DNA from: a virus
Reading direction: 5' to 3' (one strand)
DNA length: 64,000 nt
Virus record (IMG/VR): IMGVR_UViG_3300028654_000009
Shown here: positions 39,468 through 44,230 of the stretch, piece by piece
How the letters are laid out: every line of letters begins with the position of its first letter
Position numbering within the stretch: position 1 is the first letter of the stretch
The notes under the pieces: model-generated
Database searches by the model: none
Told to the model about the DNA's origin: nothing
The model's input: the letters and a program-made list of their open reading frames with translations, nothing else
Program-made: the position numbers and the translations under genes

Positions 39468-39860
39468 GTGATTGCAGAAGCTGAGCTTGTAGAAGGTATC
39501 AAAAAGACGTACGCAACGATACAGACGTTGTCGTCGAAGCTTGACCGCAGCCGGGCTGTTCTTACCAAACACGGAGCGATTTTACTGTCCGCCGAGGCTA
39601 ATTTGGCGTCGGTAAAAAGTGACGCACGCGAGACACTCAACTCGGAGGTCATAGACCTGGGGCGCTACAAAAGTTGCCGCAAGCAAATTGCGGATATAGG
39701 TGCCTTCATCGACGAAATCCGAATCAATATCGGCAACGCTGCAGTCGAGGTGGAAGGCACCAGACAACAACTGGAGGGCGCCAAAGCTCTGTATTCTGAG
39801 TTGGTGAAAACCTTAGAGAACCCAAAACTTGCGACCGTACTTCCGATGGAGCGTCCATGA
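39468..39860 (+). CDS. Hypothetical coiled-coil protein
   Basis: 130-aa helical ORF behind the promoter. Confidence 0.6.
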   Translation: MIAEAELVEGIKKTYATIQTLSSKLDRSRAVLTKHGAILLSAEANLASVKSDARETLNSEVIDLGRYKSCRKQIADIGAFIDEIRINIGNAAVEVEGTRQQLEGAKALYSELVKTLENPKLATVLPMERP

Positions 39861-40057
39861 GCGATGAGCGTCTAACTGCAGATCCCGATTTCATCTTGTT
39901 GAAGCGTTTCGGATACAGCATTCAAAAGCTTGAACAGAGATACCCGGACGGCTGTCCGGCGCATATCATCGCCCCGGCGCTGGGCCTCACCGAGGAAGAG
40001 CTTGTGGCCAAACACGAAGAGATCGTCGTCAAGCTTCGCGCCCTGATGGGAGCATAA
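39857..40057 (+). CDS. Free-standing sigma region 4-like HTH protein
   Basis: IIAPALGLTEEELVAKHEEIVVKLRALM resembles region 4.2 (IA..LGLT.E.V......KLR). Confidence 0.5.
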   Translation: MSDERLTADPDFILLKRFGYSIQKLEQRYPDGCPAHIIAPALGLTEEELVAKHEEIVVKLRALMGA

Positions 40058-41853
40058 TGAGCTTCAAGGCGTTTTCGACTCCACACTGTCACCCCCTTTC
40101 TCTCGACTCTGGAGCCACCCCTGCTGCGTTTGCAAAGCGTGAAGTGGAGCTAGGCTCCGGAAGTATCACCTGCACCGATCACGGGTCACTGGCAGCAGCT
40201 TATGAGGTCACGAAGCTTGCCAAGAAGCACAACCTGCTGCCCTGTGTGGGGCTCGAAGCGTACGTGCGTGACGACAATTGCCCAATCCTTGGGAGCCTTG
40301 GGGTCGCAAAGACAGACACTATCCCCAAAGGAATGGACAAGGAGGCCTGGCTTGCCGAACATCCTGACGGTTCGTACTTCGAGTATTCCAAATACCAACA
40401 CCTGACCCTGGGGTTTCGGGACTACGCCGCGTACCTTACCGGCGTTCGCCTGCTGTCTGACGCCGACGCCCGAGCCGAGCGGCATGGGTCCGAGCTGAAG
40501 CCATTGTTCGCCTGGGACCAAATCGAAGAGCTGGCCTCAAAAAATGTAACGGCGACTTCGTCCTGTTTGATAGGGATGGTTGGGCGCTTTCTGTTGGAGC
40601 ACAACAACGAGGACGCGGCAGAGGCATACTTCGATCGACTCAATCACTTGTTCAAGGGCCGATTCTACGTGGAGGTCTTCCCTCACGAGTGTACCCACAA
40701 CTGGACCAACAAGGTGTTTTTGGAAGTGGAGGCTCCCGAGGGGAAGCGTCGCCTCCCTTTCCATACCGGGAAGAAGCTGCGTACCAACAGAAACGAGCCC
40801 AAGGGCATTTCTGCAGAGGACCTGGCAGCGGTGTTCAAAGGTGGTGGTTACCAGACCCTGCATGAGATTTGCCACTACCGGAAGTGGGAAGCCCTCCCGG
40901 CTCCTGTGAAATTGTTGAGCGTCGAGCGTATCGAGGGCTTCATCGAGAATGAATGCGACCCTTACGGGAATACGGACGTCCAGATCAACGTCAACAAATT
41001 CGTCCTTAGGCTTGCAGAGAAGTACAACGTGCCGGTTCTGCCTTCTGACGATAGCCACCTCGCGACACCTGACGAGAAGAGCGTCCAGGACGTTCGTTTA
41101 GCGCAGCAGGGCGATTGGCGCTTTCACAAGGCGTACTATCGGATGTCGTCTGACGACGCTTACCCTTATTTTAGGGACAAATTGGGTATCTCGCCCAAAC
41201 AGTTTGAGAGTTGGATTGACAACTCCCACGAGTGGGCCCAGGGGTTCAAGGGGTTCAAGTTCGACGGAACCCCAAGCCTCCCCAAGAAGTTCTATCCCTC
41301 TGACACTCTGGCTCACCTGAAGGCTTTAATTCAAAAGCATGGGAAGTTCCCACGAGGCGATAAAAGGTACGTGGAGCGTCTCAAAAAAGAAATTGAGATG
41401 GTTCACAGGAACGGGAAGATTGACCTCCTGCCGTACTTCTTCAGCGCAGAGGAGTGTACGCGGCTGTATTCCAATCAGGGCATGCTGACCGGATTTGCTC
41501 GTGGCTCTGCAGGGGGTTTGTTGATTTCGTATCTGCTGGACATCACCCAGCTGGACCCGATTCGGTATGAACTGTCAATGGAGCGTTTTTTGACTACTGA
41601 CCGTGTTCTGTCGGGGAAGCTCCCAGACATCGACCAAGACCTTACGTCCCGCGAGCTGTTGGTAGGCCAAGAGACGGAAGTGGTTGAATTTGAAGCAGAG
41701 GATGGTACACTCCACATCCTGCCCGAGTGGTTCAAAGTGGAGACGGACCAGGGGCTAATGACTGTCAGAGAGGCCAAGGAGAAGGACGCGGACGTCTACC
41801 CTTGGTGGCTGGAGAAAGAAATAGATGAGAATCAGGAAAATCCACCGGGCTAG
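40057..41853 (+). CDS. dnaE: DNA polymerase III alpha, N-terminal part (PHP domain and palm start)
   Basis: HCH..SLD, TDHG, GLEAY, DSH, RGSAGG.L.SYLL.IT.LDP, ERFL and PDIDQD motifs. Confidence 0.92.
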   Translation: MSFKAFSTPHCHPLSLDSGATPAAFAKREVELGSGSITCTDHGSLAAAYEVTKLAKKHNLLPCVGLEAYVRDDNCPILGSLGVAKTDTIPKGMDKEAWLAEHPDGSYFEYSKYQHLTLGFRDYAAYLTGVRLLSDADARAERHGSELKPLFAWDQIEELASKNVTATSSCLIGMVGRFLLEHNNEDAAEAYFDRLNHLFKGRFYVEVFPHECTHNWTNKVFLEVEAPEGKRRLPFHTGKKLRTNRNEPKGISAEDLAAVFKGGGYQTLHEICHYRKWEALPAPVKLLSVERIEGFIENECDPYGNTDVQINVNKFVLRLAEKYNVPVLPSDDSHLATPDEKSVQDVRLAQQGDWRFHKAYYRMSSDDAYPYFRDKLGISPKQFESWIDNSHEWAQGFKGFKFDGTPSLPKKFYPSDTLAHLKALIQKHGKFPRGDKRYVERLKKEIEMVHRNGKIDLLPYFFSAEECTRLYSNQGMLTGFARGSAGGLLISYLLDITQLDPIRYELSMERFLTTDRVLSGKLPDIDQDLTSRELLVGQETEVVEFEAEDGTLHILPEWFKVETDQGLMTVREAKEKDADVYPWWLEKEIDENQENPPG

Positions 41854-44230
41854 TTCCCCGCGCCCTGAAGAAGGAGCTATCAAGCCTTGGTTCCCGGGCT
41901 GGTTTCATGAACGCTTCGGGGACCATATCGCGCAAATCAGCGTAGACACGACTCTCAAAATGAGGTCGGCCGTGAAGGACGTGTCGCGTGCTAGGCACGG
42001 GTATGTGGCCGACGACGTTGAAAAACTAGCCGCAAAATTCCTGACGCCCCCGATGGGGATTTCGGATCATCGTTTCGCTTTAGGTGACGATAGCGAGGAT
42101 GAAGGACGAATGCTCGGGTCTTCTGTGCCAGGGCATGTGGGCAGCGATGCTGCCCTTATCGAGTACATTCGACGCTATCCTGAGGAGTGGGGAGTTGTCC
42201 AGAAGGCTTTGGGTTTGCCTCGCAACAAAGGCAAGCATGCCTCGGCGTACGTTTTGGCTAACCGTCCGATCAAGACATTCATCCCCCTGACGACCGTCAC
42301 GGGTGAGCAGGTCACAGCGTTCACGGCGGCCCCTGTCGAGGCGGCTGGCGGAGTTAAGATGGACTATTTGGTGGTCTCCCAAATTAAGGACATCCAAGAC
42401 GCTATCAGGATTGTTCAAGGACGGCATGGAGGTGAGCCGACCACCCAAGTTCTGAACGGGATTCCTGTCCCGCCACAGCGCCTGGTCCCTTTGCCGGCCG
42501 GCGGGTATGCAGACATCGCAGACCTCCCTCCCGACCCATCTGTGTTCAAAGAGATCGCTCTGAGTCGCACCGATACCGTGTTCCAGTTGAACACCCCGGC
42601 AGCAAAGAAATGGCTCGAACATTTTTCTCATCAACGCCCCGATGGCTCTTATGTTATCGACAGCGTCAAGGCTATCGCTGACTTTACGGCCCTCGACCGA
42701 CCGGGACCCCTGGACGCATTCGTCATCAATCCTGACTGGGACGGGCCGCCCGACCACCAGGACGCGCGACATAACATGCTCGTCGAATATGCTCGCAGAA
42801 AGCGTGGGGCGACACCTTCGCCAGAGATTCAGCCGATCATGGAAAAGATGCTTCCTGAGACGGCGGGCATCTTGATTTATCAGGAGCAGGTCCAGCGGGT
42901 GTACCAAGAGCTGACGGGCTGTACCGGTGTAGAGGCTGAGGGGTTCAGGGCAGCCGTGGCCAAGAAACAAAAGGAAGATGTCGATAAGGCTTACCCGTTT
43001 TTTATGGCCGCTGCCGAGAAACAGATTGGCAAAGAGAATGCCCAGCAATTGTGGGACGCCATCGAGACGTTCTCCGCCTACGGTTTCAACAAGGCCCACG
43101 CTACGGCGTACGCCCTTACTGCCTATGCCTGTGCGTGGCTTAAGTTCCATTATCCTTTGGAGTGGTGGACGGCGGTCCTGGGCAACGCTACCAAAAAAGC
43201 TATCAACGAAAAGTTCTGGCCCTATTGCCACAAATTCGTTTTGCTACCCGACATCCGGTTGTCGGGGCACGATTGGCAGATAGAGGGCGACAAAATCCGA
43301 GCCCCGCTGTCTCTTCTCAATGGAGTAGGCGAGAAAGCGTTCGAGCAGCTGTGCAAGTATGCCCCTTACGATTCCATCCTGGATTTCGCCAAGGCGATTA
43401 AGAAGCACCAAGACTCCAACCCGAAGGCGCGCGAACGCAAGGTAAAGGGCGAGGACCGAACAGAGACGGTGGAAGGCCCCGGGCTTTCTTCTATTCATCG
43501 TTCGACGGTGTACCGAATGATAGTCGCAGGGACCATGTCTTCTCTCTTCCCACAAAATTACACTGTCGGCGAGTGTATCGCCGCGTATGACGCCGCCATG
43601 ACCGAAGTGTTTGGTAAGAAGTATACGAAGACCAAGAAGGCCGTGTTCCCCACACTCGACACCTACGGCCGCTATCAAATCAAAAAGGAGGTGCTGCCAA
43701 CGTATGGCGAAGACCTTCGCGTTTTGGTAGTGAAGGCCGGCCTTCCTGCGTATCTCAAACTATACGACGGGAAGAGATTGAGATTCAGCTGGGTCAAATG
43801 GAGCAGGACGCATTATCGAGAAATTGAGACCGAAGACCCCGTCATTGGTTGGGAGAGACTGGAGTCCCTCGTGGAGGCAACTACCGTTCCTCCTGGCGGT
43901 TTCTCGTGCGCAGTTGTTTGCTATGTAGACGCACGGGAGTTTATCAATTACGGACCAAACAAATCTAAGAGAGGTTTGAAGTTGCATGTAGACGTGGGAG
44001 GTGGTAGACTGGAGTCTGTCTTGTGGCCCAGAGGCGATAAGGGCCTGCCGCCGGGAGCCAATAATCTTGAGCCCGGCTGCATAGCGGTTCTTGCTCTCGA
44101 ACGGAACGACTCCACGAGGGGGTTCAACGTGAGAGCTTTTGAAGTAATTCGTGCACCACAAAAACTGAAGGAGGAAGATGTCGACGCCAAAGATAGCGGA
44201 CCTGCTGACCACAATCCAGCAAGCAAATAA
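41825..44230 (+). CDS. dnaE: DNA polymerase III alpha, C-terminal part
   Basis: AQI...KDVSR, GKHAS, KMDYL, VFQL, RPGP, IYQEQ, YGFNKAHA and GVG motifs. Has its own GGAG SD. Confidence 0.92.
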   Translation: MRIRKIHRASSPRPEEGAIKPWFPGWFHERFGDHIAQISVDTTLKMRSAVKDVSRARHGYVADDVEKLAAKFLTPPMGISDHRFALGDDSEDEGRMLGSSVPGHVGSDAALIEYIRRYPEEWGVVQKALGLPRNKGKHASAYVLANRPIKTFIPLTTVTGEQVTAFTAAPVEAAGGVKMDYLVVSQIKDIQDAIRIVQGRHGGEPTTQVLNGIPVPPQRLVPLPAGGYADIADLPPDPSVFKEIALSRTDTVFQLNTPAAKKWLEHFSHQRPDGSYVIDSVKAIADFTALDRPGPLDAFVINPDWDGPPDHQDARHNMLVEYARRKRGATPSPEIQPIMEKMLPETAGILIYQEQVQRVYQELTGCTGVEAEGFRAAVAKKQKEDVDKAYPFFMAAAEKQIGKENAQQLWDAIETFSAYGFNKAHATAYALTAYACAWLKFHYPLEWWTAVLGNATKKAINEKFWPYCHKFVLLPDIRLSGHDWQIEGDKIRAPLSLLNGVGEKAFEQLCKYAPYDSILDFAKAIKKHQDSNPKARERKVKGEDRTETVEGPGLSSIHRSTVYRMIVAGTMSSLFPQNYTVGECIAAYDAAMTEVFGKKYTKTKKAVFPTLDTYGRYQIKKEVLPTYGEDLRVLVVKAGLPAYLKLYDGKRLRFSWVKWSRTHYREIETEDPVIGWERLESLVEATTVPPGGFSCAVVCYVDAREFINYGPNKSKRGLKLHVDVGGGRLESVLWPRGDKGLPPGANNLEPGCIAVLALERNDSTRGFNVRAFEVIRAPQKLKEEDVDAKDSGPADHNPASK

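Follow-up and report, generated by a model that had tools for sequence, protein, structure and literature searches.

The window that we analysed, 64,000 nucleotides (nt) of the IMG/VR virus record IMGVR_UViG_3300028654_000009, is part of a 132-kb viral contig whose closest cultured relative is Myxococcus phage Mx1. It encodes a C-family DNA polymerase, DnaE, in two adjacent genes. The cut runs through the palm, between the PDIDQD motif and the third catalytic Asp (in KMDYL), so that one dnaE has become two genes, and the cut ends carry pieces of the N-terminal (IntN) and C-terminal (IntC) fragments of a split intein. We document here the split, its conservation, the homology and predicted fold of the remnant, and the loss of its catalytic residues. 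The reading that we favour, and consider probable, is that of a two-chain polymerase with a splicing-dead lobe of a split intein serving as the clasp at its cut ends.

One polymerase in two genes

Between them, the two genes supply the complete set of DnaE parts: a PHP domain, a palm with three catalytic Asp, fingers and HhH. The Pfam family DNA_pol3_alpha aligns over its positions 20–111 to the N gene, which also carries PHP, and over positions 121–259 to the C gene, which also carries the finger and HhH domains. The match to PHROG 405 is likewise colinear across the two genes. The DnaE of Mx1 is a single unsplit protein of 1289 amino acids (aa), to which the two halves in the window are 53% and 42% identical. 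The features of the split gene, all on the + strand, are as follows.

40057–41853, +: dnaE N gene, encoding 598 aa; PHP, then the opening portion of the palm with two of its catalytic Asp, and finally an intein-derived tail
41623–41640, +: PDIDQD, the two palm catalytic Asp of the N gene, from the Pfam alignment
41668–41850, +: N tail, Q538–G598; net charge −13; core E541–W584 homologous to IntN residues ~55–100
41719–41733, +: LPEWF, where an intein would have block B (TxxH), and opposite LTEDH when aligned with a genuine IntN; Thr replaced by Pro, His by Phe
41811–41814, +: GGAG, Shine-Dalgarno sequence of the C gene, 10 nt upstream of its ATG
41825–41853, +: overlap of the N and C genes, 29 nt, in different frames (C gene in +1); identical at 7 independent loci
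41825–41896, +: C head, M1–P24; net charge +4; MRIRKIHR corresponding to the first IntC strand, then a linker to palm GWFHERFG
41825–44230, +: dnaE C gene, encoding 801 aa; remainder of the palm, fingers and HhH
42356–42370, +: KMDYL, third catalytic Asp, in the C gene
43079–43099, +: YGFNKAH, intact, in the C gene

An initial annotation, made from the letters of the window alone, had described much of this layout: the two motifs on separate genes, a C gene with its own Shine-Dalgarno sequence and ATG that overlaps the N gene by 29 nt in the +1 frame, and a site distinct from the cyanobacterial one in that YGFNKAH is unbroken. Each of these points holds at the coordinates listed.

Compared with the unsplit Mx1 DnaE, the window has ~81 extra residues at one point in the palm, and these are the tail Q538–G598 and the head M1–P24. 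In unsplit relatives the same point is a loop of 0–8 variable residues between LLV and GWLxxRFG. The start of the tail, GQET, aligns to this host loop, and the intein-like part therefore begins at about E541. The final ~14 residues of the tail are variable among relatives.

Intein ancestry of the tail and head

The N tail shares ancestry with the C-terminal half of IntN in genuine DnaE split inteins. A profile built from 16 tails and compared with PDB sequences ranked the cyanobacterial DnaE split inteins of Npu and Ssp first, with expectation values (E) of 0.002–0.03. Tail positions 7–51 align with intein residues 55–100 in this comparison, so that the tail ends where IntN ends. Run with HMMER against 1.84 billion representative proteins, the same profile found two genuine IntN, P0046 (E 1.7e-6) and P0048 (E 3.8e-6). 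Of these, P0046 is part of the fingers of a DnaE and runs on into an intein with Cys1 and TEDH; its Pfam matches to Hint and Intein_splicing lie below the gathering score. By BLASTP, the tail in the window shares 50% identity with P0046 over 36 aa (E 3e-8), with LPEWF falling on LTEDH. Moreover, alignment of the tails with three real IntN by hhalign gave a probability of 97.2% (E 4e-11). Similarity at this level supports descent from the Hint superfamily. Significance was obtained only with profiles and with the closer IntN P0046: phmmer searches of PDB with single sequences (the window tail and a fused insert) found no match, a Pfam scan of the tails gave no direct Hint match, and BLASTP of the tail against the IntN of the relative L028 found none. 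The likeness to the C-terminal half of Npu DnaE-N that had caught the eye of the first annotator is thus better than chance by profile, HMMER, BLASTP and hhalign, with its start refined to about E541.

The predicted fold points in the same direction. We applied AlphaFold2, template-free and with a 35-row alignment, to residues 515–630 of P0035, a relative in which tail and head are fused in one open reading frame (ORF). The model has a mean predicted local distance difference test score (pLDDT) of 83, and of 89–97 per 10-residue block over residues 21–100. In it, the tail gives four strands and a helix, and the head gives one strand. A Foldseek search of PDB with this model returned inteins almost exclusively among its top matches, the first being Npu DnaE (E 0.018, probability 1.00). 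The Npu DnaE intein was also the best match by VIA-align (Z 7.0, root-mean-square deviation 2.2 Å over 62 residues), which places model residues 22–92 on intein residues 52–114, that is, on IntN 52–102 plus IntC 1–12, the first IntC strand. In a search independent of Foldseek, over 48,161 chains, the top 26 all belonged to the Hint superfamily (Z 5.9 to 2.9), unrelated chains appearing from Z 2.9. The predicted model thus has a Hint-like arrangement in three dimensions; with Z below 8 and a predicted model, the fold match supports the sequence result and does not stand alone. Both the alignment to IntC 1–12 and the net charge of +4 fit the earlier suggestion that the C part opens with a basic MRIRKIHR resembling the first strand of IntC. 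A prediction of the complex between tail (66 aa) and head (34 aa) scored 0.24, the mark being 0.32, and we count it neither way.

Conservation among relatives

The tail is a family trait. About 20 diverged N halves of 577–611 aa (from NCBI, JGI, ENA and Logan) end in the same tail. Mean pairwise identity is 56% in the tail core and 58% in the N part of the polymerase taken whole; the remnant is therefore under selection, with a constraint similar to that on the N part. The C genes all begin Met-Lys/Arg-Ile/Val and have a conserved first strand from residue 1–2. Across the family the net charge ranges from −3 to −13 for N tails (window −13) and from 0 to +5 for heads (window +4), which bears out the acidic and basic polarity first described for the window.

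The way in which the halves are joined is far less uniform. In L005 and L026 they meet in an ATGA overlap, and in L004 they are separated by a 425-nt spacer. Five relatives (P0024, P0031, P0035, P0036 and P0037) are fused, with tail and head in one ORF. The spacer of L004 holds an ORF of 163 aa (L004:3426-3917) and L030 has an ORF of 66 aa between its DnaE halves (L030:5246-5446); neither matched a Pfam or PHROG family. On the contig of P0007 (Logan SRR23617192) a 169-aa Endonuclease_7 gene (PF02945), resembling a free-standing homing endonuclease, lies between the halves.

Inteins that look alive also occur in this polymerase family. Two of the tail-bearing N halves carry such inteins at other sites. 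Full inteins with LAGLIDADG domains are frequent in the DnaE family as a whole, at several other sites and in both N and C halves (P0012, P0014, P0037, P0040 and L029:3207-6656).

A proposed clasp at the cut ends

The mechanism that we propose is as follows. The replicative polymerase would be made as two separately translated chains, the cut being in a palm loop at the surface, with the first two catalytic Asp on one side of it and the third on the other. At its end the N chain has an acidic N2, the C-terminal half of an IntN, and the C chain opens with C1, the basic first strand of an IntC, followed by a short linker; N2 and C1 would together form one Hint lobe. The other lobe, containing block A, block F/G and all of the splicing residues, has been deleted, so that no peptide bond would be formed. 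Tail and head would attract one another by charge and co-fold by strand complementation, as in a live split intein, thereby docking the palm halves and bringing the three Asp into one active site. The lobe names N2 and C1, and the apparent match of the remnant to the capture parts, reportedly go back in part to Shah et al. 2013. The two fragments of a live split intein first capture each other by charge, through a disordered anionic part of IntN and the cationic IntC, and then co-fold (reviewed in PMC11766414); the opposite charges of tail and head agree with that electrostatic capture step.

A number of points weigh against this reading. That tail and head bind, and that assembly of the polymerase may need their binding, is inferred from sequence, charge and predicted fold. 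On the side of the fold, the evidence is a prediction for a relative whose halves are fused, and Z stays below 8. The five fused relatives carry the same insert in one unsplit chain, and the insert is thus kept even where assembly is unneeded; it may not serve solely to hold two chains together. The palm halves themselves might associate well enough without the tail and head. Finally, in the only tested analogue, the fragmented phage enzyme Aeh1 NrdA, the tails are not needed for the heterodimer itself (PMC3045599).

These points lend some force to a different account, in which the insert is an intein-derived relic that became fixed as a structural decoration of the palm or as a docking site for another replisome protein, the palm interface does most of the work of holding the chains together, and the break between the genes is a neutral by-product of endonuclease traffic at the site. 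The retention of the insert in fused relatives, the scatter of split, fused and insert-free states on the DnaE tree (described below) and the dispensability of the Aeh1 NrdA tails for heterodimer formation (PMC3045599) would all fit. Such an account sits less well with a break whose position is invariably the boundary between the N2-like part and the C1-like strand, with opposite charges that are maintained in the split forms, or with a first strand that is conserved at residue 1–2 in every C gene. Taken as a whole, we judge it unlikely.

Our preferred reading is close to that of the initial annotation, which had proposed a decayed split intein domesticated as a clasp. The intein origin, the loss of the splicing residues, the two-gene polymerase and the polarity have all stood up to analysis; the job of clasp is a matter of interpretation, and the fused relatives weigh against it. 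Extended from the window to a widespread family of Mx1-like phages, the proposal would be that the N2 and C1 lobe is a splicing-free heterodimerisation module that rebuilds the polymerase active site and switches between split and fused states in evolution. We lean towards this broader view, though by a narrow measure.

Loss of the splicing residues

Whatever its present role, the remnant falls well short of a working intein. A complete Hint fold has blocks A, B, F and G and ~130 aa or more; the insert has ~81 aa and could be aligned only to Npu 52–114. Immediately upstream of the tail there is only the host sequence LLVG. The first ~51 and last ~23 intein residues are missing, and ~65 of ~135 Hint residues remain. 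Position 1, which in an intein is a nucleophile (Cys or Ser) or Ala, is Q after LLVG in the window and W, C, K, E, G, F, Y, S or A in relatives. The Thr-x-x-His of block B has given way to Pro and a hydrophobic residue throughout the family. At the other end there is no His-Asn followed by Cys, Ser or Thr at +1; instead, the heads pass from the first strand via a linker into FPGWF, and across the family they lack a conserved Asn as well as a nucleophile at the C junction. The absence of the block A Cys/Ser, TxxH and His-Asn, originally reported for the window, is therefore a property of the family.

With none of block A, TxxH, His-Asn or the +1 nucleophile present, trans-splicing of the dnaE halves is very unlikely. 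One might still argue that the fragments are a much reduced, non-canonical split intein that trans-splices the halves, given their homology to split inteins and the presence of live inteins, and of one live-looking split intein, elsewhere in the same polymerase family. With fewer than half of the Hint residues left, a first tail residue that takes ten identities, a block B stripped of its Thr and His, and a C junction bare of His-Asn and of any Cys, Ser or Thr, we regard this as highly improbable.

The split is genuine

The exact N protein is present on 18 contigs. The search for the same split in other assemblies and in relatives yielded, besides the ~20 diverged split forms, seven loci in ENA, JGI and Logan assemblies that have the same two genes and match to within one base over as much as 4.2 kb, with no difference at all in the junction. 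An assembly error, such as one of a single base pair, is ruled out by this identical junction in seven loci from different samples and assemblers. A frameshift has in its favour that the frames differ by +1 and overlap by 29 nt; it is ruled out by the relatives with spacers or whole genes between the halves, together with the identical independent assemblies. A group I or other intron would accord with the extra DNA of ~220 nt having a length of 3n+1, but an Rfam scan of that DNA gave no match at E up to 10, the RNA of the region is less stable than shuffled controls (z = +1.66), and the region is conserved as protein. Indeed, neither a frameshift nor an intron can account for the relatives, because their halves are variously joined by an overlap, a spacer, an ORF or an endonuclease gene. 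A blastn search of phage genomes with the junction found no match. The notion that the split is an artefact or is repaired elsewhere, whether through misassembly, decay to a pseudogene, programmed +1 frameshifting or a self-splicing intron, has thus been largely refuted, and we find it scarcely credible.

Comparison with known systems

One of the closest known systems is the cyanobacterial DnaE split intein (Npu and Ssp; PDB 4kl5, 1zde and 1zd7), which resides in the same host protein family. There the gene is broken at the equivalent intein point, the end of IntN, and IntN is acidic and IntC basic, as in the window; residues 52–114 are similar to the window remnant in sequence and predicted fold. 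The two differ in site, the cyanobacterial intein being inserted in the FNKSH region (intact in the window) and the window remnant in the palm loop after PDIDQD. Unlike the Npu and Ssp inteins, the remnant is without the first ~51 and last ~23 residues and all catalytic residues, and splicing is not expected. The genes in the window are adjacent, whereas the cyanobacterial halves lie at distant loci.

Phage-like metagenomic loci, three DnaE loci among them, have yielded genes fractured by fully competent split inteins (Dassa et al. 2009, PMC2677866). A replication gene there has been divided by a split intein into neighbouring genes, and a free-standing endonuclease gene frequently sits in between (PMC2677866). 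The window shares this architecture: the host gene lies in two adjacent ORFs and is broken at the intein endonuclease-insertion point, the tail ending where IntN ends and the head starting where IntC starts. The halves in the window overlap by 29 nt, with no free-standing homing endonuclease gene between them, and it is the P0007 relative that has Endonuclease_7 at this place. The published inteins keep all six Hint motifs and the five catalytic residues (PMC2677866); the window keeps one lobe and no catalytic residues.

The closest precedent comes from phage Aeh1, in which unique, oppositely charged tails are essential for a fragmented NrdA (Crona et al. 2011, PMC3045599). NrdA-a and NrdA-b, like the window genes, are the parts of an essential phage enzyme that is split through its active site and restored by neither RNA nor protein splicing (PMC3045599). 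The authors speculated, without sequence evidence, that the tails are remnants of a degenerate split intein (PMC3045599). No intein similarity was shown for those tails, whose origin was unknown, whereas the homology in the window has statistical support; the polarity is reversed, the tail of the N fragment being basic in Aeh1 and acidic in the window; and the function of the Aeh1 tails was tested biochemically (PMC3045599), whereas the window dnaE is known here from sequence and a predicted model. The window brings the two themes together, as a fragmented polymerase whose tails are, judged from their residues, demonstrably intein-derived and catalytically dead. In a limited search of the literature we found no account of a natural splicing-dead split intein acting as a clasp.

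A dead and a live-looking break occur side by side in one relative. L028 (JGI 3300043534; L028:3501-9818) has its DnaE in three genes, with a dead remnant at the break in the palm and a live-looking split intein at another, between GRHA and C. The live-looking intein belongs to the same polymerase family, has a closely similar pattern at its IntN end, and has an IntC that starts Met-Arg-Ile-Leu, like the window head. Unlike the window remnant, it lies at the GRHA/C site and keeps Cys1, TKDH, His-Asn and the +1 Cys. The 429-aa middle gene ends in the live-looking IntN (Cys1, TKDH) and a Cys/His-rich extension, which is HNH-like by eye and was not confirmed as HNH by Pfam. The C gene opens with the live-looking IntC, ending in His-Asn directly before the +1 Cys, and the N gene contains a full intein inside PHP.

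Evolution of the split and fused states

We placed 45 N parts on a quick maximum-likelihood tree for which no root was inferred, with L023 treated as insert-free. One clade (support 100) contains 17 split forms, 5 fused forms and 1 insert-free form (P0023). The split forms L008, L019 and P0040 are placed among insert-free proteins. The starred branches of the tree require at least four changes of split state and hence repeated movement or loss of the element, which endonuclease traffic nearby would lead one to expect. The fused forms are nested in the split clade, which hints that fusion is secondary to the split; the forks concerned are weakly supported. P0023 itself, with a DnaE that is unsplit and has no insert, groups as sister to the split P0004 (support 96) within the insert-bearing clade, which suggests a clean loss of the module or recombination.

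Implications

If our reading is correct, this would be the first natural split intein shown from sequence to be retained solely for its binding step, and it would confirm the guess made for the tails of Aeh1 NrdA. Split inteins and endonuclease-fragmented genes are known; the window bears on what becomes of them once the capacity to splice has gone. The survival of the binding lobe under selection, with the catalytic lobe gone, suggests that a selfish element can be reduced to protein–protein glue. The idea also offers a testable answer to how phages tolerate the fragmentation of essential genes, and sequence evidence for the degenerate-intein idea put forward for Aeh1 NrdA. A natural module of ~55 + 10 residues may be of use as a small non-covalent dimeriser, with natural split and fused pairs available for comparison. 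For annotation, DnaE halves of this kind should be neither labelled pseudogenes nor merged as frameshifts.

Other features of the genes and their surroundings

The C halves of L004, L005, L026, L028, P0018 and P0024 have a four-Cys, zinc-ribbon-like insert of ~30 aa after KDVSRA, which is absent from the window (KDVSRARHGYV). The genes that neighbour dnaE in the window make up a replication and recombination module resembling that of Mx1. Directly upstream, at 39857–40057, is an ORF of 66 aa that matched no PHROG. It ends at the very base where dnaE starts, and is therefore probably translationally coupled to it.

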